Position numbers and translations under genes: made by a program. A stretch of 64,000 nucleotides of DNA from Oscillatoriales cyanobacterium. GTDB taxonomy: Bacteria > Cyanobacteriota > Cyanobacteriia > Cyanobacteriales > Laspinemataceae. The notes below the pieces were generated by a model. That model saw nothing but the letters and a program-made list of their open reading frames with translations, was not told where the DNA came from and ran no database searches. How positions within the stretch are numbered: position 1 is the stretch's first letter; the number at the start of each line of letters is the position of its first letter. The stretch covers positions 110,694 through 174,693 of the forward strand of contig JAABRM010000001.1 of NCBI GenBank assembly GCA_011390955.1. The letters run 5' to 3'. Shown here in pieces: positions 647 through 23,395 of this stretch.

Positions 647-2323
647 TTAACGTTTACCCACATAAGTAATGCCTAAGTGGTCAGACATTTTAGCAAAAAT
701 TGTTTCTTGGGTAAACGGTTTACCTACAAAGTCATCAAACTCTGACTGAAAAATTGAATCTTCTTCTAGTTCCAAGGGGTTGGCAGTCATGGCAATAATT
801 TTCGGGGGCATATCTGTCTGAACCTCGCGAATTTTTTTGGTGGCTTCGTATCCATTCATTATGGGCATTCGGAGATCCATCCAAATCAAATGAGGTAGCC
901 AATTTGCGGACTCAGCGATCGCCTGCATTCCATTTTCCACGGAGCGCACTTCTACTTCTAATCCTTTGAGAAATTCCACCAACAAAAACCGATTCGTTGG
1001 CTCATCATCAACCACCAAAATTCTAAAATTTTCTTGATGGGGCTTCACCTTTACTGGTTGAACTAACGAGAAAAACTTATCGGTCTTTGACACCATCACG
1101 GGTAAATAACATTGAAAAGAACTCCCTTGACCGACAACACTGTTAACAGTTATTTGACCCCCCAAGAGTTCCGCAAATTTTTGACTGATGGATAAACCTA
1201 GCCCGGTTCCCCCAGCCACTTTTTTTCCCACTTCAGTTTGGACAAAGGGCTGAAAAATTCTACTGAGATTTTCTGGAGCAATTCCTGGCCCTGTATCAAT
1301 CACTTCAAAAAGCATGATTAATTCTTGTTGAGCCACATTTGAGCGGAGTTCCGCCCGATCGCGGCGGTGGGTCGCTAAACTATTTTCCTGGGAATCAACG
1401 ACTTTTAAGCGTAAAGTAACTTGACCGCGATCGGTAAATTTAAAAGCATTGCCTAACAGATTAATTAAAATTTGGCGGAGTTTTTTTTCATCGCTTTCTA
1501 TGATTTCCGGCAAATGAGAATCTCGCTTAATCACAAACCGGATATTTTGCTTATTGGCCTTAAACTCAAAAATTGCCCTTAAATGATTAAGCATTTCATT
1601 CAAAGAAAATGTTTCCCGGTTTAAATCAATTTGTTGAGCCTCTATTTTAGCCAAGTCCAATATCCCGTTAATTAACGACAGTAAATATTGACCGCTTTCA
1701 TAGATAATTTCCATGTATTCTTGATAATCAGAAGTCAGGGCTGGATCGGTTTTCATTAACTCAGCAAAGCCGATAATCGCGTTCATTGGCGTTCTTAGTT
1801 CGTGGCTCATATTGGCAATAAACACACTTTTGGATCGGTTGGCTTCTTCAGCAATTTCTTTAGCAAAACGCAACTGTGTTTCCAACTGCTGGCGATAAAT
1901 AATCTCCTCTTGCAGTTCTGATTTTTGCCGTTTAATTGTTAATTGATTCTCAATCCGAGCCAAAACAGTTTGCTCATCAAAGGGTTTAGTAATATAGTCA
2001 AATGCACCGACTTCAAATCCTTTAACCTGAGAGGTAGCATCGTTGAGTGCGGTTAAGAAAATTACGGGAATCTCGCGATTTATGTCGGAAGTTTTCAGGA
2101 TGCGGCAAACTTCGTATCCATCCATTTCTGGCATTAAAATATCTAGCAAAATCAAGTCAGGAGGATTGAGATCGATCGCATCTAAAGCCCGCTTGCCATT
2201 GGTGACTGGGCGAACTTTATACCCCGCATCTGTCAGAATTTTTGACAAGAGTTTTAAGTTTTCTAGGGTATCATCAACTACCAAGATATCAGCTTTAAAA
2301 GCTTGGGGGATTGGGGAATTCAT
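647..2323 (-). CDS. Hybrid two-component protein: N-terminal receiver, HisKA/HATPase kinase core, C-terminal receiver
   Basis: N-term ILVVDDTLENLKLLSKIL...LLDILMPEMDGYEV (CheY-like REC); H-box MSHELRTPMNAIIGF; G-box GTGLGLSISQ; second REC ILVVDDEP...DLRMPIMNGYE. Its 4-bp stop/start overlap with the upstream kinase suggests an operon. Confidence 0.85.
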   Translation of the reverse strand: MNSPIPQAFKADILVVDDTLENLKLLSKILTDAGYKVRPVTNGKRALDAIDLNPPDLILLDILMPEMDGYEVCRILKTSDINREIPVIFLTALNDATSQVKGFEVGAFDYITKPFDEQTVLARIENQLTIKRQKSELQEEIIYRQQLETQLRFAKEIAEEANRSKSVFIANMSHELRTPMNAIIGFAELMKTDPALTSDYQEYMEIIYESGQYLLSLINGILDLAKIEAQQIDLNRETFSLNEMLNHLRAIFEFKANKQNIRFVIKRDSHLPEIIESDEKKLRQILINLLGNAFKFTDRGQVTLRLKVVDSQENSLATHRRDRAELRSNVAQQELIMLFEVIDTGPGIAPENLSRIFQPFVQTEVGKKVAGGTGLGLSISQKFAELLGGQITVNSVVGQGSSFQCYLPVMVSKTDKFFSLVQPVKVKPHQENFRILVVDDEPTNRFLLVEFLKGLEVEVRSVENGMQAIAESANWLPHLIWMDLRMPIMNGYEATKKIREVQTDMPPKIIAMTANPLELEEDSIFQSEFDDFVGKPFTQETIFAKMSDHLGITYVGKR

Positions 2324-5300
2324 TTAATTAAGGGTTTGATAATTTCAATCAAGCGATCTATTTTAAATTCATGGACTAAATTCGCTAACCTCTCTGCCAA
2401 AGGCTGATTAATCGGGTAAAGTTCTTCTAATAGGCGAAAAATCCACTGCCGATCGGCACTTCTGGCGGCTTGGTATAGCCGATCGATCCATTCATTAGGC
2501 ATCACCATCAAGCTGTCAGGGTCAAAAAGATTTTGCCGTCCATTGCTTAGTGGTTGCTGACTAAAAGCCTGGGGATGGGATAAAATGGCCTCCGAACCAG
2601 ACTTTTGCGGAAAAGCAAGATTCGGTGAAACAACAGAAATCTCAGTTATTTTATCGTTGCCCAAATCTGGACAATTTAAGCATAACCGAGTGCTGGAATA
2701 TAGATCGTGGACGCCTAAAGATTTAGCGATTTGCTGCAAAATGATTTCTGTGGGAGAGGACTCGTGAATCCAGGAATTCGCACCAGCAGAAAATAAAGCC
2801 GATCGCTCGTCTTCAGATTCACTGGTGATTAATACCATCATAAATGTTTGGCGATCGAAGTTGAACGTCGCTGTCCGATCGCTTTGCGGTTGCCGAATCT
2901 GTCGAATCGCCTGAAAATCATTGATGCGGGCAATTTGCTCGTGGATCAAAATCAGATCCGGTTGCCAAATCGACCAAGTTTCGATCAGGTCTTTCTCATT
3001 GCGGACTTTCTTGACCTGGAAATTAAGGGATACTAGCGAATTGGCCAAAATGCGGTGATTTTCGGCTACAGGATCCGCGATCAGGATCCGATGACTTGGT
3101 GCGGTGGGGGCTGGGGCGATCGCCGGGCGATCGGTCATCATCAACCAGCGATCGGCGGAAAGTCTCTGCGGTTCTACGGATATCACCGGCAATTCCACCT
3201 GAAAAATCGTTCCTAGTCTCTGAGTATTTTGGTCGGGGTGATTTTCCTCCACAATTCCCGCTCCGGGTGTAAACTTTTTCCCGCGACTAATCGCAGTAAT
3301 TTTACCACCCATTAACTCAATAAATTGCTGACAAATCGCTAAACCTAAACCCGTGCCTTCTTGAGAATTGCGTCCCGTTGTCGTTTGCACAAATGGCTGA
3401 AATAAATACTCGAAATCTTCCGGGGGAATTCCCGGTCCAGTATCTTCTACTTCAAAGCATAGTCGCGCATTAGCGGAGGCTTGATGCTTCAAGTTTTGCG
3501 GCAAATTCTGGGGATCTACTGTGGTTACTCGGACGATCGTTTCGCCTTGTTGGGTAAATTTAATCGCATTTCCCACCAGATTAATCAAAACCTGGCGTAA
3601 TTTTTGTTCGTCGGTTTTCACCAGATTAGGGACGCGATCGCCAATTTCAAAAATCAGGGGTAAATTTTTGGATCTAGCTTTGATCTGCATCATCTCTTGG
3701 ACAGTGCTTAATAGCTGGTGTAAATTAACCGTATTTTCATTTAATAGCACTTGACCGGCTTCAATTTTTGACATATCCAAGACATCATTAATCAGTTCCA
3801 GTAAATGCTGGCTACTCCGCCGGATAATGCTTAAATATTCTTGGTGTTCTGGGGTCAGAGAGGCATCCCGCTGAATAATTTTCGTAAAGCCCAAAATTGC
3901 GTGCAAAGGCGTGCGGAATTCGTGGGTCATTTTCGCCAAAAATGTACTTTTGGCTCGGTTCGCGACTTCCGCCACTTCTTTGGCTTGCTTTAAAGCCAGT
4001 TCGCTCTGTTTATGCTCGGTAATATCTCTTAAGGAAACAATATAAGCTGATTTTCCTTCTGATTGATATGCTCCGGTTTTCATCTCGATGGTTTTCTTTT
4101 GACGGCGATCGCCCAGTTCGCCCAGTAAATAAATATCGACAGTTTTATGTTTAGGAACGCCGAATTCCGAGTCGATTAATTCCTCTACAGGTTGATTCAA
4201 TATTTGACCGGCGGCTGGATTAGCAAAACCAATTTTGCCTTGGTCATCCAAAATTAACAACCCGTCAGAAGTATTGGTGACGATCGCATTCATCTGGGCT
4301 TGATGCTGTCTGACGGCAATTTCTGCTTTTTTGCGTTCCGTAATATTTTGCACTTGACCAATTAAATATAGCGGTTGGTGATGTTTATCTCGCACCACAG
4401 ACACGCTGACTAAACCATAAACGATGGAACCATTGTGATGAGTAAACTTTTTTTCTCGGTAAAAAGCATCTTCTTTTCCCGATAAGAGACCTTGGACAGC
4501 GATGAAGTCTTCTTTTATATCTTCTGGATGGGTGATATCGTAACAATGTCGCTGAAGCAACTCGTCGGAGGAGTAGCCTAAAATTTGGCATAAAGCTTGA
4601 TTTACTTGTAAAAAATGTCCCGTTGGAGACACGAGACAAACCCCGATCGCCGAATATTCAAAAGCTTGTCTAAATCGTTGTTCGCTTTCTTTTAAAGCGG
4701 CAGTTCTTTCCGCCACTTGGATTTCTAAATTCCGATTATAGTCGGCTAAGAGTTTTTCGGCTTGTTTGCGTTGCGTAATATCTTGAAAAGTCACCAGAGC
4801 ATAGAGAATATTGCCTTGGTTGTCAAAAATTGGCTGACCTTGTGCCTCGAATAGTAATGTTTGGCCATTTTGACGCATTTCAATATCATCAACCTGAATA
4901 CTTTCGCCTTTCAAGGCTCGAATAACTGGGAGATTTTGCCAGGGGTAAGGTTGTTCAGTTCCCACTACATATAGTTGATAAAATTTGACCAGTTGGTCGG
5001 GCTCGATCTGATGTTTTTGCGGATATTTAATTAAGGATTTTGCGGCTTTATTTATATAAACAACTTGATAATTTTTATCATATAAGAAAACTCCGACAGG
5101 TAAATATTCTAAAGATTGAATTAGCTGTTTTTCACTATCTCTGGCTGCCTGAACTGACTGGTAAATTTTTAAAGTAATACTGCTGCTGGTTAAGGCGATC
5201 GCCGATGGAATCACTGGCAGCCACCATCCTTGGAGAAATGCCAGATAACTGCTGGTAAATAACAAGAAATTACCGCAGCCAATATTGAAGCTAATTTGAC

Positions 5301-6435
5301 CCAAGTGAATTATGAGTTTGTTTTTAGCCGAGTCAGGAATTAATGCCGCTGAACTGGCGATCGTCCAGGTAAACGACCAACTAATAATCCACAAAATTTC
5401 TATAAATTCTGACCAGACTTTAATCGTCGGACGCCCCTCAATGGCCGCACTCAAAAGATGACTAATCACATTAGCATGAACGATCGCACCAGCACTAGGT
5501 TTAGGCATATCAGTTAACCGGCTACTGTAGGGAGTATAAAATAACTCATTCAAGCTGGTAGCGGTGGAACCAATTAACACAATGCGGCCAGAAATTTTCG
5601 CGGGATCAAAATTTTGATTCAGCAATTGAGTTAGGGAAATCTTTTCAAACTTTTCCTCGTCTCCTCGATAGTTTAATAAGATTTGATACCCCGCAGCATT
5701 TGTCCGCACATAGCCGCCATCATAGGCAGTAAAAGGTTGGAAAACTGATTTACCTAGTTGAATGTGATTTTTCTTATTCTTTGGATCTATTTCTTGTGGG
5801 GTGATGCCGCGATTTTCCAGATATTTTAAAGCTAATTGAGTCCCAATGCTTAATTGCACTTGACCTTGAGGATTTTGATAAGAAATAAGCACCCGCCGAA
5901 CTTTACTATCCGCATCTAATAATAAATCGACGATGCCCACTTGCGTCATCCGGTCTAAAGTTGGCGGAGGGGGAACGGGTTCACCAATTACTTTTTCCAC
6001 GCCAATTAAATTGGGGGTCGATCGCATCACTTGAACTAAGGTTTGATACCCCGGTTCTACGGGTAAATCTCGATAAAAAAGTAACCCAATTCCCGCTGGG
6101 TTATGTCGATCTATGGTCTGAATCACTTCGGCGACCAAGGCATCAGATAAAGGCCATTGACCGACTTTAGCAATATCTTCCTCGTCCACGGTAATAATTA
6201 ATAGGCGATCTTCTACTGTTTCCGCTGGGCGCCAATTAAAAAATTGATCTAAAAGTGCCCACTCTAAAAGTTGCAACCCTCCGGTATATTTGAGGGCGAT
6301 GACACAAAAAGTCACCGTAGGCGCAATTAAAAAAATACTCCGCCATTGCTGCTGGAGTTTGCTGAATTTCGACAGGAGCCAATTCACTTTATTTTTTGGT
6401 TGTTGGTTGTTGGTTGTTGGTTGTTGGTTGGGCAA
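2320..6435 (-). CDS. Multi-sensor hybrid histidine kinase: CHASE2 extracytoplasmic sensor, TM region, several PAS/PAC domains, HisKA/HATPase, C-terminal receiver-like region
   Basis: CHASE2-like N-terminus (TM, ...LIITVDEEDIAKVGQWPLSDALVAEVIQTIDRHNPAGIGLLFYRD); PAS blocks; H-box MTHEFRTPLHAILGF; G-box GTGLGLAICQ. The annotated 5' end runs through a (CAACCAA)n heptamer repeat that encodes TTNNQQP, so the true start may be a downstream Met. Confidence 0.85.
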   Translation of the reverse strand: MPNQQPTTNNQQPKNKVNWLLSKFSKLQQQWRSIFLIAPTVTFCVIALKYTGGLQLLEWALLDQFFNWRPAETVEDRLLIITVDEEDIAKVGQWPLSDALVAEVIQTIDRHNPAGIGLLFYRDLPVEPGYQTLVQVMRSTPNLIGVEKVIGEPVPPPPTLDRMTQVGIVDLLLDADSKVRRVLISYQNPQGQVQLSIGTQLALKYLENRGITPQEIDPKNKKNHIQLGKSVFQPFTAYDGGYVRTNAAGYQILLNYRGDEEKFEKISLTQLLNQNFDPAKISGRIVLIGSTATSLNELFYTPYSSRLTDMPKPSAGAIVHANVISHLLSAAIEGRPTIKVWSEFIEILWIISWSFTWTIASSAALIPDSAKNKLIIHLGQISFNIGCGNFLLFTSSYLAFLQGWWLPVIPSAIALTSSSITLKIYQSVQAARDSEKQLIQSLEYLPVGVFLYDKNYQVVYINKAAKSLIKYPQKHQIEPDQLVKFYQLYVVGTEQPYPWQNLPVIRALKGESIQVDDIEMRQNGQTLLFEAQGQPIFDNQGNILYALVTFQDITQRKQAEKLLADYNRNLEIQVAERTAALKESEQRFRQAFEYSAIGVCLVSPTGHFLQVNQALCQILGYSSDELLQRHCYDITHPEDIKEDFIAVQGLLSGKEDAFYREKKFTHHNGSIVYGLVSVSVVRDKHHQPLYLIGQVQNITERKKAEIAVRQHQAQMNAIVTNTSDGLLILDDQGKIGFANPAAGQILNQPVEELIDSEFGVPKHKTVDIYLLGELGDRRQKKTIEMKTGAYQSEGKSAYIVSLRDITEHKQSELALKQAKEVAEVANRAKSTFLAKMTHEFRTPLHAILGFTKIIQRDASLTPEHQEYLSIIRRSSQHLLELINDVLDMSKIEAGQVLLNENTVNLHQLLSTVQEMMQIKARSKNLPLIFEIGDRVPNLVKTDEQKLRQVLINLVGNAIKFTQQGETIVRVTTVDPQNLPQNLKHQASANARLCFEVEDTGPGIPPEDFEYLFQPFVQTTTGRNSQEGTGLGLAICQQFIELMGGKITAISRGKKFTPGAGIVEENHPDQNTQRLGTIFQVELPVISVEPQRLSADRWLMMTDRPAIAPAPTAPSHRILIADPVAENHRILANSLVSLNFQVKKVRNEKDLIETWSIWQPDLILIHEQIARINDFQAIRQIRQPQSDRTATFNFDRQTFMMVLITSESEDERSALFSAGANSWIHESSPTEIILQQIAKSLGVHDLYSSTRLCLNCPDLGNDKITEISVVSPNLAFPQKSGSEAILSHPQAFSQQPLSNGRQNLFDPDSLMVMPNEWIDRLYQAARSADRQWIFRLLEELYPINQPLAERLANLVHEFKIDRLIEIIKPLIK
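6389..6432. repeat. Heptanucleotide tandem repeat (TTGGTTG/CAACCAA)n, one locus of a dispersed family
   Basis: Direct reading: ttggttgttggttgttggttgttggttg. The same repeat occurs at 19316-19392, 19547-19570, 19680-19742, 23853-23885, 38355-38478 and 50340-50412. Confidence 0.9.
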
Positions 6436-6813
6436 AATAGTTACACCATTTACAAAAATTCATCCAGCATCTCCTAACATTCGTAGGGTGGGCAAAAATA
6501 CCCAACCTACCATATATATATGATGGTGGACTTTTGCCCACCCTACAATATAAATAATTATTATAAATTTTTGTAAATGGTATTAACAATTGTTAATTAT
6601 CAATTGTTAATTATCAATTGTTAATTAATAGCCAAAAATTACCAATTATCAATTTTGAAGAGGCGGGTTTGGGAAGTTGCGGAGGTAAAGTATTTCACAA
6701 GTGATGATAAATAATTATGATAAATATAGTTATTGGTTATTTATGATTGGCTATTTGTTGGTTGAACCGAACAATCCCTAACCAATAAAAAATAACCAAT
6801 AACATTTTTTAAG

Positions 6814-7608
6814 TTACGGCTGGGCTAACAAGGATTCATGGGCGATCGCATTCAGCCCCACTGAGTTTAATAAATTGACCCAATTCTGATTCATAAAACT
6901 GGAGTCAATGGCGGAAGCATTACCCAAATCTGCTGATTGATTCAGTTGAAACAGGATGTTTAAAGTATCGTACCAAATCCCCGCTTGACCATAGAATACT
7001 GCCTGCTCAATACTGAGATTAGATGGTAAATCAGAGGCGATATTTTCCTCTAGTTGAACCCGTTCTAATTGACCTGTGACCCAGGGCATATCCGATTGAG
7101 CGGGCTGGCACATTAACGCCACAGACCAGTCATAAGTTTTACCAATTTCTAAAGGCGTTTGGTCTTGGGGCAGGGAGATTTTCACCACGCCAGCATTCCC
7201 AGAAATTGGCAATCTCGCCTGGTAAATGCCCACATTATTTTCGTCTTTTAAGCTAAAATAAATTTGCCGCGCCGAAGTCTGCGGGACATATACAAAAAAG
7301 CTGGGATGAGAGGCGACAGTTAGCCCGTGATTATTTCCCGGAATCAAAGCAGTTAAGGGAATTTCACTGACGCGATCGTTGCGACAAGCCGTGGCATTTC
7401 TAGAAGCACCGCCTCTGGAATCATCGGCTCTCTCGTCGGTGGGCGGCTCGAAAATAACTTGGTAATTTTGGGGATTTGAGGCTCTTTGAGACGGTAAATC
7501 AAGCTGGGCTCCGGTTTGGGCAGATGAGGGCAAGGAAAATGCCATCACCATTCCCCAAGAAAGGAGCACCAGGTTAGTTTTGAAAGTTTTAGAAGTAAAA
7601 CAAGACAT
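6814..7608 (-). CDS. DUF928-family secreted protein (cyanobacterial domain of unknown function)
   Basis: Signal peptide MSCFTSKTFKTNLVLLSWGMVMAFSLPSSAQ. The core IYFSLKDENNVGIYQARLPISGNAGVVKISLPQDQTPLEIGKTYDWSVAL is paralogous to the ORF at 22667 (FVLKDENDNDIARMTVALPEQPGIVRIQLPE...LQVGKEYQWVFS). Last gene of the TPS/CHAT operon. Confidence 0.65.
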   Translation of the reverse strand: MSCFTSKTFKTNLVLLSWGMVMAFSLPSSAQTGAQLDLPSQRASNPQNYQVIFEPPTDERADDSRGGASRNATACRNDRVSEIPLTALIPGNNHGLTVASHPSFFVYVPQTSARQIYFSLKDENNVGIYQARLPISGNAGVVKISLPQDQTPLEIGKTYDWSVALMCQPAQSDMPWVTGQLERVQLEENIASDLPSNLSIEQAVFYGQAGIWYDTLNILFQLNQSADLGNASAIDSSFMNQNWVNLLNSVGLNAIAHESLLAQP

Positions 7609-7814
7609 AAATTAAATCCTGATTTGAATAAACCAATTATAGACTTAACTAAGTGACCGGCGATCGCGGTTTGGGGCAAACCTTGCCTTAACAGCCGCCA
7701 CTCAGACATATCGATGCCATAGAAGCACCATACATATATAAAATTTCCTCTAAACGACTTAACTTTGTCATCCGCCATAAGGCGTAAAAATCATCAATCC
7801 TTGATGATTTTATT

Positions 7815-10580
7815 TTAGAGCCAATTTCCCAATAAAACAAAGGGAGCCCAATAAAAGGGATGTTGGGACTGAGGATTTTTCAGCAAGGCTAACTGAGCCA
7901 TTTGTAAGGCTTTGGCTTTTGAGGTTGCCGGTTGCCCCGCGAGTTCTTGGTAAAACCGAATCATTAAGTCCGCCGTAGAACGATCGCTGACTTGCCACAA
8001 AGTCCCCAAGGTGGTACGCGCCCCAGACCGCACCGCAAACCCCGCTAAACCCAAGGCTGCACGGCGATCGCCTGTGGCGGTTTGGCAAGCACTCAGCACC
8101 AGCAACTCCAAGGGACGACTAAATTTTTGCTCCCGCGATCGCAGAATACTATTAAATTCTTGCACGTTCATTTTGCCATCCCAAGTCAGAATAAATGTAT
8201 CTTCCACTTGGGAACTAAATTGCCCGTGGGTAGCAATATGAACCACGGGAACATTTAAGGAATTGATTTTTGCGGCTAAATTAAAATTGGTAAACCTTTG
8301 GTTCAATAACAAATCGGATTTGAGGATGTGAGAAATTTCTGTTAGTTCTGTTTCCACGCCGGGTAAAGGGGAAAACATTTCTCGCCCTTCGCTGAGTCCC
8401 CCCATCAAAATGGATAATTTTTCCCCAGTCACAGAGTCTACATTTAATAACTGTAATCCGGGAGCGAGAGCCAAACAATATTTAGCAATCAAATATTGTT
8501 GCCCATCATAAAGGGCTGCTATGGGCAAACTCCGCAAAGCGCTATCTAATACAAAGACTAAAGTTTCAATGCCACTTGCCGCTAACTGAGGTTCAGCGGG
8601 TCGAATCAGCCAATCATAGATGATTTGAGAAACTTCTAGGCGATCGCTATCAAAAAAAGCGGGATTCAGGTAAATTTGAAACTGCTCTAGCCGCGCCACG
8701 ATCTCTGGTTCTGGCAATTTGGTTTCATAGTAAGTTAAATCTGCTCCAGGCAGGGCTAAAATCACCGCCAAGCGATCGGCCAAAATAATCGGGTAAATTA
8801 CCGCAGCGGTCGGATCGATTCGATCTATTTTGATTGGCTTGGCTTCCAAGCAAGCTTCGCGAAAAAAGTTATCTAATTCTGCCACTTGTAAGGATTCTAT
8901 TACTTGTCGGGCTTGCTGAAGGTTGGCTTTATTTGTCGGGTCTTGCACCAAAAGTCTCACCAATTCCCGATACACAGGTTCTACGGTTTCTTTGAAAGAA
9001 AATTGCACATCCCGGTGAATATTCACCAAGTCAGCCCGTAAACTTTGCAAGCTATTAACTGCTTCTTGGTAAGCCAAAATTGCCTGATTATTTTGGCCTT
9101 GATTGGTGAATAATCTTCCCTGTTGCCATTGCCAACGGGCGATTAAATCTACTGCCTGAATTTGTTGGGCAATTAGCAAGGCTTGTTGAGTGATTTTCTG
9201 AGCATCTTGCCACTGTTGGTTTTGCTCGTATAATTTCCCCAAAGTGCCTAAAGCGTAAGATTCAGCTTTGGGTGCAGCTAAAGTTCTGGCTGCGGCGATC
9301 GCAGGAGTTAAGATTTGGGCAATTTCTAAGGGTTCGATCTGCCATTTTCCTGAATTGATATTTAGTAAAATATCAGCTAAATTGATGCGAATACTCACGG
9401 AAGTGTTACTCAAGGGTAATTCAGCTAACCTTAACTGAATGGTTAGATATATATCTTTAGCGTCTGACCATTTTTCGAGGGTAATCAGTTGATTTAAGTA
9501 ATTCACATTTGCCTGCAATGCTTGAGTTAAACTTGGCGCAATTTTAGCCGATTGCTGATAATATAAACTGGAAAAAATGTGGTTGCCTAAGTCTCTCCAG
9601 GTATTACCTAAACTCAGCAAAATTGCACTGGTACTTTTAGGATCGTTTAGGTCTTGACTCAGGCTTAAACTTTGCTCTAAAACTCGGCGAGATTCCGCTA
9701 AGTTGCCCGTGAAGCGCAGGGTGATGCCAAGCTGATGTAAAGTATTAATTTTTAGGGAAGAATTGGGTTGACTTTCTAGTTCACTTAAAACTTGTTTAAA
9801 GATGGTTTGCGATCGCGGATATAGTCCCAAAGTTTGCAGGGCGATCGCCTGATTAATTTGGCTGCCCAGCTTGCCAATAGTATCGCCAATTTCTGTATAA
9901 GCGATCGTGGCTTTTTCCCAAGTTTCCAAAGCTGCTTGGGTGTGACCTAATTTTAACTCTACTAACCCTGCGGTGTTTAAAACTTGGGCAAACATCGCTT
10001 TTTCTGTCCGAGAAATTAAATCTAGACGGCTTAAAATTTGTAAACTCTCATCAATTGCCCGTTTCGCTTCCAACCAATGCTCTAATTGTTGATCTGCTAA
10101 AGCCACATAATGTAAAGCTAAGGCTTTTTGGGGCTGATTATTTGCCTGTTCTGACTGGTCAGCTACCTCTTGCCAAATATTCGCAGCAGCGGCAAACTTT
10201 CCTTGTTCAAATAAACGTTGTCCTGCGGCAAATAAGCTTAGTTCTGAAGTGGGAGTTTCCGTAAATGCGATCGCCTCTCCCTTTGCCAAAAAAGTTTCCA
10301 GAAAATTTTCACCGAAGCGATCGTCTTTTACCAAGGATAAGTCCGATTGGATTGCCAGAGAATCATGGGCAGGAATTTTCGCCAATCCGGTAGACAATTG
10401 CATCACGCATAAAAATGTCACAACTGCCATAGTTATCAAAAATTTAACTTGTTCTTTAACTTGTTTTTTAACTGATTTTTTAACTGGTTTTTTAACTGGT
10501 TTTTTCATCTTTTTTCTGCCGATCGAATTCTCGATAAATACATCATCCCATGTTTGTAGGGGCGAACCATGACCGGACAT
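7815..10580 (-). CDS. TPR-repeat CHAT-domain protein (caspase-like peptidase, HetF-type)
   Basis: Long TPR region followed by a C-terminal CHAT domain with the His/Cys dyad context VVHIATHGQF... and LVLSACQTATG. N-terminal Lys-rich stretch and a TM/signal segment (ITMAVVTFLCVMQL). An alternative start at ATG (complement of 10506-10508) gives MKKPVKKPV.... Confidence 0.85.
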   Translation of the reverse strand: MSGHGSPLQTWDDVFIENSIGRKKMKKPVKKPVKKSVKKQVKEQVKFLITMAVVTFLCVMQLSTGLAKIPAHDSLAIQSDLSLVKDDRFGENFLETFLAKGEAIAFTETPTSELSLFAAGQRLFEQGKFAAAANIWQEVADQSEQANNQPQKALALHYVALADQQLEHWLEAKRAIDESLQILSRLDLISRTEKAMFAQVLNTAGLVELKLGHTQAALETWEKATIAYTEIGDTIGKLGSQINQAIALQTLGLYPRSQTIFKQVLSELESQPNSSLKINTLHQLGITLRFTGNLAESRRVLEQSLSLSQDLNDPKSTSAILLSLGNTWRDLGNHIFSSLYYQQSAKIAPSLTQALQANVNYLNQLITLEKWSDAKDIYLTIQLRLAELPLSNTSVSIRINLADILLNINSGKWQIEPLEIAQILTPAIAAARTLAAPKAESYALGTLGKLYEQNQQWQDAQKITQQALLIAQQIQAVDLIARWQWQQGRLFTNQGQNNQAILAYQEAVNSLQSLRADLVNIHRDVQFSFKETVEPVYRELVRLLVQDPTNKANLQQARQVIESLQVAELDNFFREACLEAKPIKIDRIDPTAAVIYPIILADRLAVILALPGADLTYYETKLPEPEIVARLEQFQIYLNPAFFDSDRLEVSQIIYDWLIRPAEPQLAASGIETLVFVLDSALRSLPIAALYDGQQYLIAKYCLALAPGLQLLNVDSVTGEKLSILMGGLSEGREMFSPLPGVETELTEISHILKSDLLLNQRFTNFNLAAKINSLNVPVVHIATHGQFSSQVEDTFILTWDGKMNVQEFNSILRSREQKFSRPLELLVLSACQTATGDRRAALGLAGFAVRSGARTTLGTLWQVSDRSTADLMIRFYQELAGQPATSKAKALQMAQLALLKNPQSQHPFYWAPFVLLGNWL

Positions 10581-10645
10581 ATTTTTGGCTTAAAACCAGG
10601 AATTTAATCCATTCATGCTTCGTCCCTAAGAAAAATTGTGGTTGA

Positions 10646-13222
10646 TTAATCTGAAAAGTGCTGTATGGCAGCACAACCATATTTTATCATTAAATGAGGG
10701 CTAAAGTCATTAATTTCTGTGACTAATTCAATCTTGCCGCTTTGATTTATCCGCCAGTTTGTTGCCTCGACAAATCTGGGAACTGCTGATTCACTAACTG
10801 GTAACTTTTGCCGTAAGCGAGAATGCCTCATTTCAGTAATTTCGGAAATCTCTTGGGTAGACAAAAATCGCAAATCTTGCCAAACTTGCTGACTTTCTAC
10901 AACCTGAGTGGGATTTTCTGGTAAACCACCCCGTCCGGCAATCACAAAAGAACTGCCCTGATAATCGGCACAACCATTGCGAATTAAATTGGCAATATTA
11001 ATCGGGTTTTGAGATAAGACCAGTAACCCAGAACTGGGGTTAGTTTCTGGAGCATTAATTTCGATAATCCCATCGATTCCCCGCTCAGAACTAGCAGTAA
11101 TTGTCCTATTAGTCGGTAAAAATATGCCCTGAGTGGTGATTTGGATATTTCCCCCATTGCCCGCGAACGCATTGGCATTAATATAGCTATTATCTAAGGC
11201 GGCTAACATTTTACTGTGGATGGTAATATTTCCCCCATTGCCACCTCCTGGGGCGTCAGTTCCCGACTGGGTGGAAATGAAACTATCATTTCGCAGAATT
11301 AAATTTTCCGCAATATTTAACCGGATATTTCCCCCTTCTCCAGATGCGGAAGTGGAGGCATTAATGCTGCCTCGATTGAGTTGAATATTCCTCGCATTTA
11401 CGGCGATAGTTGCCCCAGACCCAGATGTGGCTACGGCGGTAATTGCCCCTTGGTTACTGACTAAAATTTGGTCGGCATTTATCAGAATTTGACCGGGATT
11501 TCCCACGCCACCATTGGTAGCATTGACTAAACCGCGATCGCTTACAATTAACCTGGGGGTATTAATCATAATTGACCCCGCATTTCCTGCCACCGTTGTA
11601 CCTTGCAGTTTATCTTCTAAAGTGGCAAAACTTGCGGAAGAAATTAAACTCGGTCGGCTTTTGGGTAATTGACCTGTCACCTCGATGGATTCAGCGGCAT
11701 TAATGATTAAATTTCCCGCATGGCCACTAGCAAAAGCAGAAGCAGAAACTCGGCCAGAATCTCGTAAAATTAACCGGGCGGTATTGATGATTAAGTTTCC
11801 CGCATTTCCGGCATCAAAAGATGAAGAACTTAAACTACTCGGCCTGATGCGAGTATCCGGCCCGATCGGGTCGATCCAGAGGCCACTTAGTTCGATCGAC
11901 TCAGTAGCATTGACGATCGCATTTCCCGCGTGTCCCGTACTATCGGCCACAGAGGTGACAAGACTGCCGTTTATTGCCGTTAAATGTCTTGTAGATAAAT
12001 TGACATTACCGCCATTTCCGGCACTGAGACTGATTGCATAAATGCCACTGCCATCGGTTAATTTTATGGCATCCGTAGCCACAATATTAACATTCCCAGC
12101 AGGGGCAGCACTAGCGGTGGAAGTGGCGATCGCATCTCGAGCACTTTCAGCCATCAACTGCTGAGTGGAAATATTAATATCTCCCCCCGCACCTTCACCC
12201 ACGGTTTGATTCTTAATCGTACTAGGAAAATTTCCCGCAGCATTTACGCCGACAATCTGCACAGACTCAACGGCATTCACTGTAATATTGCCCGCTGCGT
12301 GGCTGCCCTGATTTTGGATCAGTATCCCTGAACCATCACGGATTTCTAATCTTTGCCCTTGGACATAAATTGACCCGCCACTATCGCCACTGGCATCAAC
12401 TAAAGCCTCAGATAATAGCTGAATTAACCCGAAATTTGCTGCGGCTGCATAGCCCAGTTGCCAACCATAATCAGTGGGATTCAGACTTACAAAACCCGAA
12501 CCGACACTGCCTAAAGAAATATGTCCTCCTGGGGCGGTGACAATCCCACCATTAAATCTTAAATTACTGCCAACTAAGGCCAAAGTATTGCCCGGTTTAA
12601 TCTGCAAACCTGGAGGGCTTTCAGGAAATCCTGTCACTGGGGTAAATCCTAGACCTAATTCATTATTAGCATTCAAACTATGTCCCGTTCCTTCGACCAG
12701 AATTTCCCCAGAATTAGTCTCGAATTGCAACCCAATGGGTAAATTAATTGTTAATAGCGGTGGGGCATTTTGTTCCGTGGCACTAAACAAGCTGCCATCG
12801 GCTAGTTTGATACTTTCAGCGGTACTGGCAATAAACGAGCCACCCAAATTCAGCTTGGCATTGGCACCAAAGACAATCCCATTGGGATTAATTAGAAATA
12901 AATTAGCCAAACCATTAGCTTGAATCAGCCCATCAATCTGAGAAATTTGCCCGCCTGTCACCCGCGTAAGAATATTTTTAATGGTGGGTGCATTATCGAA
13001 ATAAGCCGTTTCTCCGGTAAGCAGATTAAACCGATCAAAACTGTGAAATAAATTATCACCCGCTGTAGTTCCGCCGGTAATTTGTTGCACAGACCCTTGA
13101 GAATTGACCACGGATTGATTCGGTAAGCTGCGATCGGGAATAATCTGGGCTAATATTGGTTTCGGACAACTAACATAGAGAAAAATTACTAGGAATCCGC
13201 TGCATAAATTGGGGTAATTCAT
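10646..13222 (-). CDS. Filamentous-hemagglutinin N-terminal (TPS) domain exoprotein, TpsA-like, with beta-helical repeats
   Basis: Signal peptide, then the hallmark haemagglutination-activity (TPS) domain: ITGGTTAGDNLFHSFDRFNLLTGETAYFDN...ANGLANLFLINPNGIVFGANAKLNLGGSFIASTAE; followed by repetitive Gly/Asn/Ser-rich beta-helix-type repeats (GNAGNLIIN...). Confidence 0.85.
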   Translation of the reverse strand: MNYPNLCSGFLVIFLYVSCPKPILAQIIPDRSLPNQSVVNSQGSVQQITGGTTAGDNLFHSFDRFNLLTGETAYFDNAPTIKNILTRVTGGQISQIDGLIQANGLANLFLINPNGIVFGANAKLNLGGSFIASTAESIKLADGSLFSATEQNAPPLLTINLPIGLQFETNSGEILVEGTGHSLNANNELGLGFTPVTGFPESPPGLQIKPGNTLALVGSNLRFNGGIVTAPGGHISLGSVGSGFVSLNPTDYGWQLGYAAAANFGLIQLLSEALVDASGDSGGSIYVQGQRLEIRDGSGILIQNQGSHAAGNITVNAVESVQIVGVNAAGNFPSTIKNQTVGEGAGGDINISTQQLMAESARDAIATSTASAAPAGNVNIVATDAIKLTDGSGIYAISLSAGNGGNVNLSTRHLTAINGSLVTSVADSTGHAGNAIVNATESIELSGLWIDPIGPDTRIRPSSLSSSSFDAGNAGNLIINTARLILRDSGRVSASAFASGHAGNLIINAAESIEVTGQLPKSRPSLISSASFATLEDKLQGTTVAGNAGSIMINTPRLIVSDRGLVNATNGGVGNPGQILINADQILVSNQGAITAVATSGSGATIAVNARNIQLNRGSINASTSASGEGGNIRLNIAENLILRNDSFISTQSGTDAPGGGNGGNITIHSKMLAALDNSYINANAFAGNGGNIQITTQGIFLPTNRTITASSERGIDGIIEINAPETNPSSGLLVLSQNPINIANLIRNGCADYQGSSFVIAGRGGLPENPTQVVESQQVWQDLRFLSTQEISEITEMRHSRLRQKLPVSESAVPRFVEATNWRINQSGKIELVTEINDFSPHLMIKYGCAAIQHFSD

Positions 13223-13604
13223 TTTATTAAATTGCTATATTTGATTGTGAATTAAATCAAACCTATAGTTTTGGGGAGCGATTCCCCCGCCTAAGCTTTG
13301 CGATCGCCCGAATAAGTGACTGATTTTATTAAGTATTTTATACTCTCAAACACGGGATTCTGTCAAATGCTCAAAATATTATTTTTGTGAATCCTATAAT
13401 CGGTTTTGTTTACCCAGGGGCGATGGATGATTGATAGCTGATTGATAATTGATGATTGGATCTTTTATTAAAGTTACTGATTGCTAACAAGTAAATAAAA
13501 AACTAGAAATAAAGATGCCTGAAATCTGACCGGATATTTGATTATTGTACCCTAAACAACTATACTAGATAAAATCCGATTACCCTGAAAGAGTGACTAA
13601 AATT

Positions 13605-14678
13605 ATGACTTTCAAAATTCTAACCCTTGATGGAGGCGGTATGCGGGGTATCATATCCGCTCGCATCCTCAAAGAATTTGAACAAGAACTGAAAGCTTTA
13701 ACCGGGAAGGAAATTCACGAATATTTCGATTTGGTGGCGGGGACTTCCACTGGTTCAATCTTGGCAGCGGGAGTTGCCATGAAAAAGCCGATTGACACCA
13801 TGATCGGTATATATCTAAACGAAGGGGGAAAAATTTTCCCAGAAGATAAGCGAAAATTACGCAATATAATTCCCGGAGGTGGGGGTTATGTTATGCCCTT
13901 CACTCAATACCCAACCGAAGGACTCAAATCGGTGCTGAAAGATCAGTTGAAAAATGAGTCGGGACAGTTGGCTAAAATGCGAGAAATTCGCGACCCAATT
14001 TTAATGATTTTGGCCTACGATACCTGGAGCCGGAATACCACTTATTTTGCCAGCGATCGCGACGATGAAAGCGGCTGGTTTTTAGATAATGAACTTTGGG
14101 AAATCTGTATGTGTTCTGCCGCCGCTCCCACTTACTTTCCCCCCCATCAATTAACCCGGACAGGTAAACATCAAAAAGACGTAGAATATCCGCATATTGA
14201 TGGAGGTGTTGCGGCAAATAATCCCTCTTTGGCGGCTTTGTGCCATGCTATGTTAATGCAAAACATTGGCTTAGAAGATATTGCCATTCTTTCCATCGGC
14301 ACGGGGATCACTAATCATCGCTATAAATTTGATGAAGTGAAAAAATGGGGTTTGCTAAATTGGGCACAACAAATCCCCGATATTTTCATGGCAGGACCGA
14401 GCGAGTTTCAGGAAGGGGTTGCGGCTCAAATTATGGGGTTTGAAAAATCCGGGCGCTATCTGCGGCTGAACTATGAATTAAACGGCAAATTAGCGGCGGA
14501 TGGGAAAAAAATCATTAACCAGTATAGCAATGAACATTTAAACGAGGCGATGGACGATCCCACCCAATGTCAAAGCTATCTGGAAGTCACCGAAAAATAT
14601 CTTAATTCATCCGATAAGCAAGGTAAACCGATTAAAGAGAAAATTCGGGAATTTATTCAGCGTAATCCTGTTGCTTAA
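13605..14678 (+). CDS. Patatin-like phospholipase
   Basis: ILTLDGGGMRGIISARIL (oxyanion hole), GTSTGS (GxSxG nucleophile), DGGVAANNP (catalytic Asp). The track ORF starts at 13593 on a non-ATG codon; ATG at 13605 is the more likely start. Confidence 0.85.
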   Translation: MTFKILTLDGGGMRGIISARILKEFEQELKALTGKEIHEYFDLVAGTSTGSILAAGVAMKKPIDTMIGIYLNEGGKIFPEDKRKLRNIIPGGGGYVMPFTQYPTEGLKSVLKDQLKNESGQLAKMREIRDPILMILAYDTWSRNTTYFASDRDDESGWFLDNELWEICMCSAAAPTYFPPHQLTRTGKHQKDVEYPHIDGGVAANNPSLAALCHAMLMQNIGLEDIAILSIGTGITNHRYKFDEVKKWGLLNWAQQIPDIFMAGPSEFQEGVAAQIMGFEKSGRYLRLNYELNGKLAADGKKIINQYSNEHLNEAMDDPTQCQSYLEVTEKYLNSSDKQGKPIKEKIREFIQRNPVA

Positions 14679-18085: not shown

Positions 18086-19306
18086 TTAATCCGTTGCCCG
18101 CAAAGCCACAATGGGATCTAATTTAGCCGCTTGCTGGGCAGGAACAATGCCAAAAAATAAACCGATCGCCCCCGAAATCGCCGTAGAAACAGTAATTGCC
18201 ATTAAGGAAAACCCCGCTGCAAACGGGGACAATAAACTGATAATTAAGATTAAACCCAACCCGATCGCAATGCCAATAAAACCACCGGAAATGGATAAAA
18301 TAATCGCCTCAGCGGTAAACTGGAATAAAATATCTTTTTGGGAAGCCCCGATCGCCTTTCGCAAACCAATTTCCTGAGTGCGTTCTTTCACCGCCACCAG
18401 CATAATATTCATAATCCCAATGCCCCCGACCAAAAGGGAAATACTAGCCACCAATCCTAACACCAGAGTTAAAGCCCCAGTCACCGCCCCCGTAATATTT
18501 TCCAACTCTTGCTGATTGCGGACAAAAAAATCATCTTCATCCACAATTCTATGGCGCAACCGCAACAAATTTTCTACCTGAAACTGTGCTTTACTTATTT
18601 CTGCTAAACTGTTCACGGAAATTGAAATAAAACTAATTTGAGTGCCGTAAATCGATGAATTACCAGAAATTTGTTGAGCCATTGTGGTCAAGGGTAAAAA
18701 CACCGCTTCATCTTGATTACTGCCAAAAGTGGCTCCTTTAGGCTGCATCACCCCAATCACCGCAAAAGAACGGTTTTTAATTCTAATATTTTGCCCCAAA
18801 GGATCTCGATCGCCAAATAATATCTTGGCTAAGTCCGATCCAAGCACTGCCACTGCTTGATACCGCTGTAAATCTAGGTGAGTAAAAAAACGACCTTGGG
18901 CGACATCAAAGTTGCGAACGGCGAGAAATTCTGGAGTAGTTCCCACTAATCGGGCAGAGAAATTTTCACTGCGATAAGTGACTCTTTCCATGCCATTAAT
19001 TTGGGGGGCAACTTCGTACACTGATGGCACTTGAGAAGCGATCGCTTCTGCATCTTCTAGCACCAAAGTTTGGGGAACCACCACAGGGCGATTTCGCGCC
19101 TTGGGACTGCCCGGTTCCACAAATAATAAATTATTGCCAAGTCCCTGCACTTGTTCGCTGACAAATTGTTGCGCTCCTTCGCCAATGCCAATAGTAGCAA
19201 TCACCGAGGCATTGCCAATAATAATGCCTAACATAGTTAAGCCGCTACGGAGTTTATTCAGCATCAAAGTCTTAGCGGCCATTTCAATAGTTTCTACTAA
19301 ATTCAT
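18086..19306 (-). CDS. devC: ABC transporter permease, MacB/FtsX family (DevC-like)
   Basis: MNLVETIEMAAKTLMLNKLRSGLTMLGIIIGNASVIA (MacB N-terminal TM1), a large periplasmic domain, and a C-terminal FtsX 3-TM bundle. The track ORF extends upstream to 19498 through heptamer repeats and MITE B; the ATG at complement 19304-19306 is the plausible real start. No devA ATPase gene is adjacent. Confidence 0.8.
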   Translation of the reverse strand: MNLVETIEMAAKTLMLNKLRSGLTMLGIIIGNASVIATIGIGEGAQQFVSEQVQGLGNNLLFVEPGSPKARNRPVVVPQTLVLEDAEAIASQVPSVYEVAPQINGMERVTYRSENFSARLVGTTPEFLAVRNFDVAQGRFFTHLDLQRYQAVAVLGSDLAKILFGDRDPLGQNIRIKNRSFAVIGVMQPKGATFGSNQDEAVFLPLTTMAQQISGNSSIYGTQISFISISVNSLAEISKAQFQVENLLRLRHRIVDEDDFFVRNQQELENITGAVTGALTLVLGLVASISLLVGGIGIMNIMLVAVKERTQEIGLRKAIGASQKDILFQFTAEAIILSISGGFIGIAIGLGLILIISLLSPFAAGFSLMAITVSTAISGAIGLFFGIVPAQQAAKLDPIVALRATD

Positions 19307-19400
19307 GTTATTTGTTGGTTGTTGTTGGTTGGTTGTTGTTTGTTCGTTGTTCTTGGTTGTTCTTGGTTGTTTGTTGGTTGTTGGTTGTTGTTTGTTATTA

Positions 19401-19546
19401 AGTAGGTGGGCAGAAATAAATGCAGACCATATCAGAAAAAAAACTGTCATTCCCGCCGATGGCGGCCTTCGCGGGGGTAAACTCCGACGGGAATCCAAGG
19501 ATTTACGGTGGAGAACGAAAAGTGCAATTAATTATGTTCACCTACT
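19401..19546. mobile_element. MITE B copy 2, embedded in a heptamer-repeat tract between devB and devC
   Basis: agtaggtgggcagaaataaatgcagaccatatcagaaaaaaaactgtcattcccgcc...gggaatccaagg...gaacgaaaagtgcaattaattatgttcacctact; flanked on both sides by (TTGGTTG)n. Confidence 0.75.
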
Positions 19547-19742
19547 TAGTTGGTTGTTGTTTCTTGGTTTTTATACCGATTTTAAAATAACATTATTGCT
19601 CCAGTTAATAGATTAATTTGGGCGCAAGCATTGCGCCCCTACTGTTGCATGATTAATTATAATCTTATCACAAAGAACCATGAACAAACAACAAACAACA
19701 AACAACCAACAACCAACAACAAACAACAAACAACAAACAACA

Positions 19743-22666: not shown

Positions 22667-23395
22667 ATGCCTAGAAACTACTTAGCGACAAACATTTCTC
22701 AAGTTGCGATCGCCCTATCCATCGCGATCGCTGGCAGTGTCGGTATTTCTGGTTCGGCCACCGCTGGGCCAAAACTGAACGTAGAAAACCGAGGCGCCCC
22801 AACCTTAACCGCTGGCGCCGCTTCTCGCAGTGGCAACAGTGCCACCCTGGTTGCGGTCCAATCCCCCAGCCAAAAAACCTTCACCGCCGCCACTGCTCCC
22901 ACGGTCTTTATCTATATATCCAACACTAATGCTTCCGAAGGGATTTTCGTCCTCAAAGATGAAAATGACAATGACATAGCTCGCATGACTGTAGCGTTGC
23001 CCGAACAACCGGGAATTGTTCGGATCCAGCTTCCAGAAACCATCATGTCTGAAACTTTACAAGTGGGCAAAGAATATCAATGGGTATTTAGCCCATTGTC
23101 TAGCAACCAGAGCGGAATTAATACCACTTTTATTAATGGTTGGATCGAACGCATTGAATTAAGTCCGACTCAGGTCAGCCGTTTGGAAAATACCGATCCC
23201 TTGGCTGCCGTGGACTTATACGCAGAAGCCGAACTTTGGCAGGATGCCCTAGCCACCTTGGCAGAATTTGCCGAAACTAACCCCAACGATTCAACCCTAG
23301 AAGCCAAGTGGAACCATTTATTAAACCAAGCTGGACTGGGCAATTTAGCCGGAGTATCCGTCGATTTTGCTCATGCCTTAGCCAGCAACAATTAA
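22667..23395 (+). CDS. DUF928-family secreted protein, paralog of the gene at 6814-7608
   Basis: Signal peptide (SQVAIALSIAIAGSVGISGSATA); conserved core VFIYISNTNASEGIFVLKDENDNDIARMTVALPEQPGIVRIQLPE...LQVGKEYQWVFSPLS aligns with the other DUF928 ORF. Confidence 0.65.
   Translation: MPRNYLATNISQVAIALSIAIAGSVGISGSATAGPKLNVENRGAPTLTAGAASRSGNSATLVAVQSPSQKTFTAATAPTVFIYISNTNASEGIFVLKDENDNDIARMTVALPEQPGIVRIQLPETIMSETLQVGKEYQWVFSPLSSNQSGINTTFINGWIERIELSPTQVSRLENTDPLAAVDLYAEAELWQDALATLAEFAETNPNDSTLEAKWNHLLNQAGLGNLAGVSVDFAHALASNN

Follow-up and report, generated by a model that had tools for sequence, protein, structure and literature searches.

TPS, TPR-CHAT and DUF928 genes beside a CHASE2 receptor gene in cyanobacteria

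Genes and domains at the locus

We analysed 64,000 nucleotides of DNA from an Oscillatoriales cyanobacterium (assembly GCA_011390955.1, contig JAABRM010000001.1, positions 110,694 to 174,693; this whole stretch is called the window), and in particular a run of minus-strand genes near its start. These encode a protein with a two-partner-secretion (TPS) domain, a tetratricopeptide repeat (TPR) protein ending in a caspase-like CHAT domain, a DUF928 protein, a hybrid sensor kinase with a CHASE2 sensor domain, and a second kinase (Table 1). A sequence-only reading of the same DNA had described the first three as co-directional genes with short gaps between them, and the open reading frame (ORF) map agrees, with 65 bp separating the TPS and TPR-CHAT genes and 206 bp separating the TPR-CHAT and DUF928 genes. 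That description ended at position 6814, omitting the CHASE2 hybrid kinase and the REC-kinase on the same strand. Pfam searches assigned all three families as expected (TPS, 3.1e-63; CHAT, 2.6e-58; DUF928, PF06051, 2.6e-53), and the motifs that had been pointed out (NLFHSF, LINPNGI, HIATHGQ with His785, LSACQTA with Cys832, and GRGGLPENP) were all found. The three products also carry export signals; the earlier reading had already placed the partners of the CHAT protein outside the cytoplasm.

Table 1. Positions of genes and features in the window
Feature	Position	Strand	Details
TPS-domain (TpsA-like) gene	10646-13222	minus	858 aa
Pfam TPS match	12368-13150		residues 25-285
Conserved TPS C-terminal region	10649-11155	minus	residues ~690-858; alignment of six module TPS proteins
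TPR-CHAT gene	7815-10580	minus	921 aa
Predicted transmembrane helix, TPR-CHAT	10392-10463		residues 40-63; residues 40-61 in the structure model
TPR superhelix, modelled	8856-10250		~residues 111-575
Caspase-like CHAT domain, modelled	7818-8813		~residues 590-921
Catalytic dyad codons	8085-8228	minus	His785, 8226-8228; Cys832, 8085-8087
DUF928 gene	6814-7608	minus	264 aa
Signal-peptide-like N-terminus, DUF928	7516-7608		~residues 1-31
Disordered 20-22-residue DUF928 motif	7399-7458	minus	residues 51-70, VIFEPPTDERADDSRGGASR
DUF928 core	6829-7356		residues ~85-260
AT-rich spacer, DUF928 / CHASE2 kinase	6436-6813		378 bp
Tandem repeat in spacer	6582-6627		3.3 copies of a 14-nt unit, ATTATCAATTGTTA
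Inverted repeat in spacer	6483-6497 / 6532-6546		GTAGGGTGGGCAAAA / TTTTGCCCACCCTAC; perfect, 15 nt, 34-nt loop
CHASE2-PAS-HisKA-HATPase-REC hybrid sensor kinase ORF	2320-6435	minus	1371 aa; Pfam
Pfam CHASE2 match	about 5368-6312		residues 42-356
REC-HisKA-HATPase-REC gene (REC-kinase)	647-2323	minus	Pfam; 4-bp overlap with CHASE2 kinase gene

The TPS/haemagglutination domain claimed for the 858-aa protein is further borne out by a match to the filamentous-hemagglutinin N-terminal model of NCBIfam (adhes_NPXG / TIGR01901, 1e-25), and its LINPNGIVFG is the NPNG(I) motif of TpsA exoproteins. A signal peptide covers about residues 1-26, with a hydrophobic N-terminus by hydropathy at residues 6-24, and the TPS domain is followed by a Gly/Asn/Ile-rich repeat region, presumably a beta-helix. 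The six aligned C-terminal regions share a first consensus, ...NPSxGLVxLP...GC...GxxFV(I/V)xG(R/Q)GGLPx(N/D)P(S/T)Q...WQDxR, and, after a variable linker of about 30 residues, a second, (I/V)EAxGWx(I/V)NxxGxxEL(V/I)A...W...C. Two Cys are conserved in this region, for which Pfam gave no match, and both motifs occur in most complete TPS genes adjoining CHAT among the genome loci described below. The idea that the roughly 100 residues after GRGGLPENP form a variable cargo domain does not hold, as only the linker varies and the terminal block is conserved.

The TPR-CHAT protein matches several TPR families over about residues 130-510 and the Pfam CHAT family over residues 650-919. In its AlphaFold2 model (predicted local distance difference test score, pLDDT, 79; predicted template modelling score, pTM, 0.74), a hydrophobic transmembrane helix is followed by a flexible or disordered linker at about residues 62-110, a superhelix of about 12 TPR pairs and the caspase-like CHAT domain. 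Only a Lys-rich N-terminus of about 40 residues precedes the helix; orthologues, which are 45-55% identical over their full length, have plain signal peptides, and N-terminal signal sequences were seen on all those examined. From these features the protein would be an exported or inner-membrane-anchored protease. The His/Cys dyad previously reported as intact is present and proves invariant: H785 and C832 are conserved in all of 69 distinct CHAT domains of DUF928 loci and again throughout a 26-sequence CHAT alignment, and D679, E745, D838 and D866 are likewise 100% conserved in the same 69. The best solved matches of the model in Foldseek were Csx29 (8eey_B, 4.7e-14), human separase (1.3e-13) and DdvA (1.5e-11); a search of PDB sequences with the CHAT protein returned TPR matches only, its similarity to Csx29 and separase being too low at the sequence level.

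The DUF928 protein (Pfam match over residues 65-259) has a signal-peptide-like N-terminus that ends in SSAQ and lies below the stringent hydropathy cut-off; together with the Pfam match it sustains the earlier description of a secreted DUF928 protein. Its core folds in the model as a fibronectin type III (FN3)-like beta-sandwich with a small helical bundle. Ahead of the core lies a short motif with the consensus (V/I)xFxPP.....P....GG(A/G)(S/T)R, in outline F-x-P-P...G-G-A-S-R, and pLDDT falls below 50 at residues 57-71. Among the matches listed, the Arg at position 70 is present in 117 of 117 distinct DUF928 sequences, G67 in 108/117, F53 in 102/112 and P55 in 102/113. The 22-residue unit is tandemly repeated in some DUF928 proteins, which carry between one and six copies (up to six in loci L080, L017, L069 and L123); most, this one included, have a single unit. 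We propose that the motif is a protease site or a peptide-recognition element. The family is large, with 6715 cluster representatives at 50% identity matching its profile, and almost always stand-alone: the best 150 matches of the profile search contained no domain fusions, only tandem duplications and repeated N-terminal motifs.

Some further observations concern DUF928 and its motif. Tandem duplicates give two-domain proteins of about 520-540 aa (P0241 and P0242), and at three loci (L046, L064 and L085) adjacent DUF928 gene copies stand ahead of a single CHASE2 gene. The window holds a second, orphan DUF928 gene on the plus strand (22667-23395, 242 aa, Pfam 3e-46), with no CHASE2, CHAT or TPS gene adjacent; it has lost the F-x-P-P part of the motif, leaving a degenerate N-terminal version (RGAPTLTAGAASR). 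An MscS-like channel (24008-25126) and, on the minus strand, an HlyD/MacB-type exporter (18086-21812) are the neighbours of this gene. The resemblance between GGASR and the RGSGR peptides of PatS/PatX was too weak to be accepted, and a cleavage motif common to the TPS C-terminus (GRGGLP) and DUF928 (GGASR) was found unconvincing, only 'GG' being in common.

The CHASE2 domain of the hybrid kinase matches Pfam at 8.9e-63 and is followed by PAS, HisKA, HATPase and REC domains. A first transmembrane segment lies at residues 34-52 and weaker hydrophobic stretches occur after about residue 345; searching PDB sequences with the CHASE2 domain returned nothing. The ORF opens at TTG 6435, but its true start is likely the GTG at 6387, because orthologues begin further downstream. 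The annotated 5′ end of this ORF contains 4.4 tandem copies of TTGTTGG (6400-6430), encoding QQPTTNNQQP. The REC-kinase is a probable phosphorelay partner of the CHASE2 kinase, which such a gene follows in at least 16 other loci and in Oscillatoria acuminata. Between the DUF928 and CHASE2 genes, the spacer holds promoter-like hexamers, which its tandem repeat (with a CAATTG core) overlaps, as well as the inverted repeat; these repeats may be an operator array or a structure in the 5′ untranslated region.

Recurrence of the gene set in cyanobacteria

Conserved synteny in other cyanobacteria had been named beforehand as a test of a functional link among the three genes. The arrangement indeed recurs in dozens of cyanobacterial species, which puts it far beyond chance. 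Around all four DUF928 homologues of 35-50% identity whose contigs were inspected, the order TPS / TPR-CHAT / DUF928 / CHASE2 was kept. For a more even coverage of species, genomes sampled at one per species were searched with a degenerate DNA pattern (about 40 bits) that specifies nine invariant DUF928 positions. This yielded at least 117 loci, all from the DUF928 subfamily that keeps those nine residues. Named records were all from Cyanobacteria, a few others being labelled only 'uncultured bacterium', and they included Nostoc, Tolypothrix, Calothrix, Oscillatoria, Symploca, Moorena, Trichodesmium, Coleofasciculus, Laspinema, Xenococcus and Crocosphaera. Neighbours were called with hidden Markov models built from five or six sequences each, and the counts are limited to cases with enough flank within the sequence tile.

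The most conserved neighbour of DUF928 is CHASE2. Among the loci listed, no more than 1.5 kb separates DUF928 from a CHASE2 gene, on either side, in 52 of 57 (91%), and CHASE2 is directly downstream on the same strand in 59 of 82. CHAT is found within 2.5 kb of DUF928 in 23 of 33 loci (about 70%), and upstream on the same strand in 57 of 91, while a TPS-family gene adjoins the CHAT 5′ end in at least 18 of the 36 loci where this could be tested. The module thus has a core of DUF928 and CHASE2, with TPR-CHAT as a frequent third member and TPS as a frequent fourth.

All 45 complete DUF928-adjacent receptors tested against Pfam contain PF05226 (CHASE2). Their outputs differ: 30 have HisKA/HATPase (27 of these with REC), eight GGDEF, six a class III cyclase and three SpoIIE/PP2C. 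Because the outputs vary and CHASE2 is constant, the conserved link is to the CHASE2 sensor domain itself. If DUF928 acts on the CHASE2 input, one would expect just this: outputs that are swapped while the sensor and its periplasmic partner stay constant.

Copies also occur on plasmids, where the DUF928/CHASE2 pairings carry only generic annotation names. Plasmid alpha of Nostoc sp. PCC 7120 has a TPS gene followed at some remove by CHASE2 and DUF928. In N. punctiforme, pNPUN03 carries DUF928 with CHAT and TPS genes nearby, and pNPUN01 (L133, 2203-9636) carries CHAT (1170 aa), trypco2, CHASE2 and DUF928 in that order, with a WD40 protein adjacent; this CHAT protein may be of a different, cytoplasmic type. 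On a plasmid of Nostoc sp. NIES-3756 (L132, 8498-12759), a 499-aa CHASE2 protein that apparently lacks an output domain stands beside DUF928. The genes immediately upstream encode a PP2C phosphatase, an RsbW-like ATP-binding protein and an anti-sigma-factor antagonist, an arrangement that points to coupling of this CHASE2 protein to a partner-switching cascade.

The TPS and CHAT parts are also found as a single protein. A second module at one locus (L007) consists of DUF928, a 1584-aa TPS-CHAT fusion (TPS 3.9e-40, CHAT 3.3e-67) and a CHASE2 histidine kinase (HK), and O. acuminata PCC 6304 has DUF928 / TPS-CHAT / CHASE2-HK / REC-HK. Such fusions are very common in filamentous cyanobacteria: the search gave 1291 homologues at E<=1e-10, and nearly all of the top 120 carry both PF05860 and PF12770. 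The functional link between TPS and CHAT is therefore strong, the two being fused in the variant module and in more than 1000 cyanobacterial proteins. In the fusions, CHAT is attached to the repeat region by a Pro/Thr/Ala linker; they have no TPR region, nor do they have the conserved C-terminal domain that TPS proteins possess when encoded separately. Read most simply, these architectures suggest that where TPS and CHAT are separate proteins, the TPR region and the TPS C-domain stand in for the covalent link.

A possible protease-gated input to CHASE2 and its alternatives

The sequence-only reading had taken the three genes to encode a secreted or surface-displayed filament whose processing or deployment is controlled by a caspase-like protease. 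Its linkage of the genes, and of TPS with CHAT, stands; deployment of the exoprotein as the main purpose is not supported, since the most conserved partner of DUF928 is CHASE2 and the system consequently looks like a sensory input pathway. We regard it as likely that these genes act with the CHASE2 receptor as one functional module. With moderate confidence, and judging from context, we favour the view that the module works outside the cytoplasm as a pathway in which a protease gates the input to CHASE2 receptors. That CHAT makes a specific cut in DUF928 is a more doubtful, tentative element of this view. What has been observed is the genomic coupling, the fusion, the export signals, the invariant catalytic residues, the invariant Arg in a disordered repeat and the variety of outputs.

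Such a pathway could run as follows. The TPS protein, having a signal peptide, would cross the inner membrane via Sec, and a TpsB encoded elsewhere would thread it into or through the outer membrane, leaving a beta-helix exposed at the surface and the conserved C-terminal domain in the periplasm. TPR-CHAT may dock on this C-domain through its TPR superhelix, which would hold the protease in the periplasm; we propose this contact because the variant modules that fuse TPS with CHAT drop both the TPR region and the TPS C-domain. DUF928, whose genomic coupling to CHASE2 is observed, would be the dedicated periplasmic partner that binds the CHASE2 domain. A surface stimulus at the filament, whether contact, envelope state or a macromolecule, might then switch on CHAT, and the activated protease might cut DUF928 at or near the invariant Arg. 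Cut DUF928 would engage CHASE2 differently and so alter the cytoplasmic output, here presumably a His-Asp phosphorelay and elsewhere cyclic di-GMP (c-di-GMP), cyclic nucleoside monophosphate (cNMP) or PP2C activity.

Several points weigh against this pathway. Beyond co-location, fusion, export signals and conserved residues, all of it is inference. About 30% of DUF928-CHASE2 pairs have no nearby CHAT gene, and an adjacent TPS is missing from around half of the CHAT genes, so that protease and filament are optional additions or act in trans. These absences are soft, as loci were taken as fixed 8-kb tiles in which neighbours may be undercounted, and the scan speaks only for the DUF928 subfamily with the nine chosen residues. 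Many TPS-CHAT fusions are orphans with neither DUF928 nor CHASE2 nearby. No TpsB adjoins any copy of the module, and surface exposure of the TPS protein is presumed. As the sequence-only reading had stated, the window encodes none: a Pfam scan of its ORFs of about 230 aa or more found no Omp85, ShlB or POTRA protein, and the roughly 12 annotated neighbourhoods likewise contained no cognate TpsB (POTRA plus Omp85/ShlB barrel). Hmw1B-type TpsB proteins are common in Cyanobacteria (PMC4104836). The P1 specificity of CHAT cannot be predicted: separase cuts after Arg and craspases after Met or Leu (PMC11506125). Finally, the promoter-like sites in the 378-bp spacer mean that the CHASE2 kinase may have its own promoter there, and the word operon, which the earlier reading used, may be too strong for the whole set.

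One alternative is that the TPS adhesin or filament is itself the end product and TPR-CHAT the protease that processes or releases it, comparable to SphB1 for FhaB or to the clan-CD cysteine protease domain (CPD) of MARTX toxins, with DUF928 as an accessory factor and the CHASE2 two-component system regulating expression only. The 65-bp adjacency and frequent fusion of TPS and CHAT are as for an auto-processing passenger, processing might take place at G(R/Q)GGLP, which is conserved close to the C-terminus of TPS, and for the orphan TPS-CHAT fusions especially this explanation is possible. For the module as a whole we consider it unlikely, since DUF928 follows CHASE2 (91%) more tightly than it follows CHAT (70%) or TPS, some DUF928-CHASE2 pairs have neither CHAT nor TPS, and receptors with GGDEF, cyclase or PP2C outputs are not devoted to regulating the transcription of an operon next to them.

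A second alternative makes the disordered motif a signal in its own right: CHAT would cut after the invariant Arg of 22-residue DUF928 pro-peptide units and free between one and six CHASE2 ligands, acting on the same cell or between cells of a filament. Tandem, near-identical, disordered units, up to six in number and each ending in the invariant Arg, are suggestive of this; separase-type relatives of CHAT cut after Arg; and the only known CHASE2 stimulus is peptidic (PMC7529298). If it were true, DUF928 proteins would be the source of a new kind of bacterial peptide signal, the long-sought ligands of CHASE2 receptors, with CHAT in a role like that of a prohormone convertase, the TPS filament would position or gate the protease at the cell surface, and filamentous cyanobacteria would have a cell-cell or surface-sensing circuit controlling c-di-GMP, cNMP or a phosphorelay. 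Yet most DUF928 proteins, the present one among them, contain just one unit. Conservation of the FN3-like core equals that of the motif, which one would not expect of a protein that only carried peptides, and CHAT is missing from the vicinity of about 30% of DUF928-CHASE2 pairs; we therefore hold this alternative to be quite improbable.

Least probable by far is contact-dependent competition, with TPS or TPS-CHAT as a CdiA-like delivery filament, CHAT as its toxic or releasing domain and DUF928 as immunity protein: a TpsA-like gene followed by a small gene does resemble cdiA-cdiI, and polymorphic toxins include caspase-like domains that act as toxins or as releasing peptidases (PMC3482391), but membership in CdiBAI was rejected because no copy examined has an adjacent cdiB/TpsB gene, the C-terminal regions are conserved and not polymorphic, no toxin families are matched, and DUF928, which is exported and rather big to be an immunity protein, tracks CHASE2 even where CHAT is missing. 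An anti-phage defence role was dropped, as the PADLOC defence models gave only a generic TPR match to the module proteins and no match to a defence system.

Other genes of the window lie outside the module. Divergent from the TPS gene is a patatin-like phospholipase gene on the plus strand (13593-14678) that matches PADLOC models of CBASS-type phospholipase effectors at 1.4e-66; no cyclase is adjacent, the next gene encodes an Exo_endo_phos protein, and the gene is not conserved with the module elsewhere. Candidate defence genes unrelated to the module are a McrBC-like pair (AAA_5 plus McrBC, 30723-33550) and a NACHT-NCH2 STAND NTPase (39551-41944), both on the plus strand. On the minus strand, a 524-aa protein of unusual architecture (56834-58408) joins Sigma70 region 2 to a long leucine-rich-repeat array, close to a gene for an extracytoplasmic function (ECF)-type sigma factor (55267-56070).

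Literature and related systems

A protease-gated input to CHASE2 would bear on a widespread extracytoplasmic sensor domain for which published work states that the ligand is unknown and calls for binding partners. In the full-text literature, we found no paper pairing DUF928 with CHAT, CHASE2 with a CHAT domain, or a CHAT domain with two-partner secretion or hemagglutinin; the match for CHASE2 and hemagglutinin was unrelated, and DUF928 is mentioned only in an unrelated context. The module is thus apparently undescribed, although each component comes from a known family and the logic has analogues in Cpx, Fec and DdvA. It offers a lead, open to experiment, on the signals sensed by CHASE2 receptors, with DUF928 as a candidate, genetically linked CHASE2 partner in cyanobacteria that has a protease and a surface filament upstream. 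Tractable strains with copies are O. acuminata PCC 6304, N. punctiforme (on plasmids) and Nostoc sp. PCC 7120 (on plasmid alpha). Among cyanobacterial CHASE2 proteins we found a phenotype reported for one, which controls gliding motility and biofilm, so the pathway may bear on surface behaviour and multicellular patterning. The module also offers a first functional context for the DUF928 family (about 6,700 clusters at 50% identity) and a context for the very large set of cyanobacterial TPS-CHAT fusions, and it would be a second, much more widespread case, after DdvA, of a periplasmic TPR-CHAT protease in signalling. A metacaspase-CHASE2 fusion from Trichodesmium, in which the caspase domain is a cytoplasmic output (PMC3501461), was rejected as evidence for a periplasmic link on account of that location.

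DdvA, a Myxococcus anti-sigma factor, is a periplasmic TPR-CHAT protein whose proposed mode of signalling is that CHAT cuts a flexible linker (PMC11506125). It shares with the protein described here the periplasmic TPR-CHAT architecture, the His/Cys dyad and a tether made of a transmembrane helix and a long flexible linker. It differs in having its own cytoplasmic zinc anti-sigma domain, through which it controls an ECF sigma factor, and in having no TPS or DUF928 partners. The active site of DdvA lacks three helices. The present TPR-CHAT protein has no cytoplasmic signalling domain, output being supplied by the separate CHASE2 receptor, and the Pfam survey of 647-14678 found no sigma factor gene; a DdvA-type anti-sigma factor was rejected on both grounds. 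Csx29 and separase, the best structural matches (E 5e-14 to 1e-13), have the same TPR-CHAT architecture and are held by a partner through the TPR region, activated allosterically and directed to a specific disordered site. Unlike the present protein they are cytoplasmic, Csx29 being RNA-guided and separase regulated by the cell cycle, and the Cas7-11 and Csx30/31 of craspase are not found here.

CHASE2 receptors with dedicated extracytoplasmic accessory proteins, which bring in a signal from the envelope or surface, are known from other bacteria. The CHASE2 cyclases of S. meliloti (CyaK, CyaD1 and D2) need the outer-membrane co-receptor NsrA and a peptidic signal (PMC13001267, PMC7529298), and in Burkholderia an operon pairs a CHASE2 kinase gene with one for a periplasmic LysM-FecR protein (PMC5192318). 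Those accessories, an outer-membrane beta-barrel and a LysM-FecR protein, are unrelated to the ones described here, and neither system includes a protease, TPS or DUF928. With the FhaB/FhaC and CdiA/CdiB systems, the TPS protein has in common an N-terminal TPS domain with the NPNG motif and a passenger rich in repeats; FhaB and CdiA keep their C-terminal part in the periplasm, the topology we assume for the TPS protein. In contrast to two-partner secretion, no TpsB is adjacent, the TPS protein is short (858 aa) with a novel conserved C-domain, and its coupling is to a membrane receptor and a clan-CD protease, in place of a role as adhesin or toxin. The Cpx system is alike in logic, running from a surface sensor (NlpE) through a periplasmic modulator removed by a protease (CpxP/DegP) to an inner-membrane kinase (CpxA), an analogy without any homologous component, and FecA-FecR surface signalling follows a similar logic with different parts.

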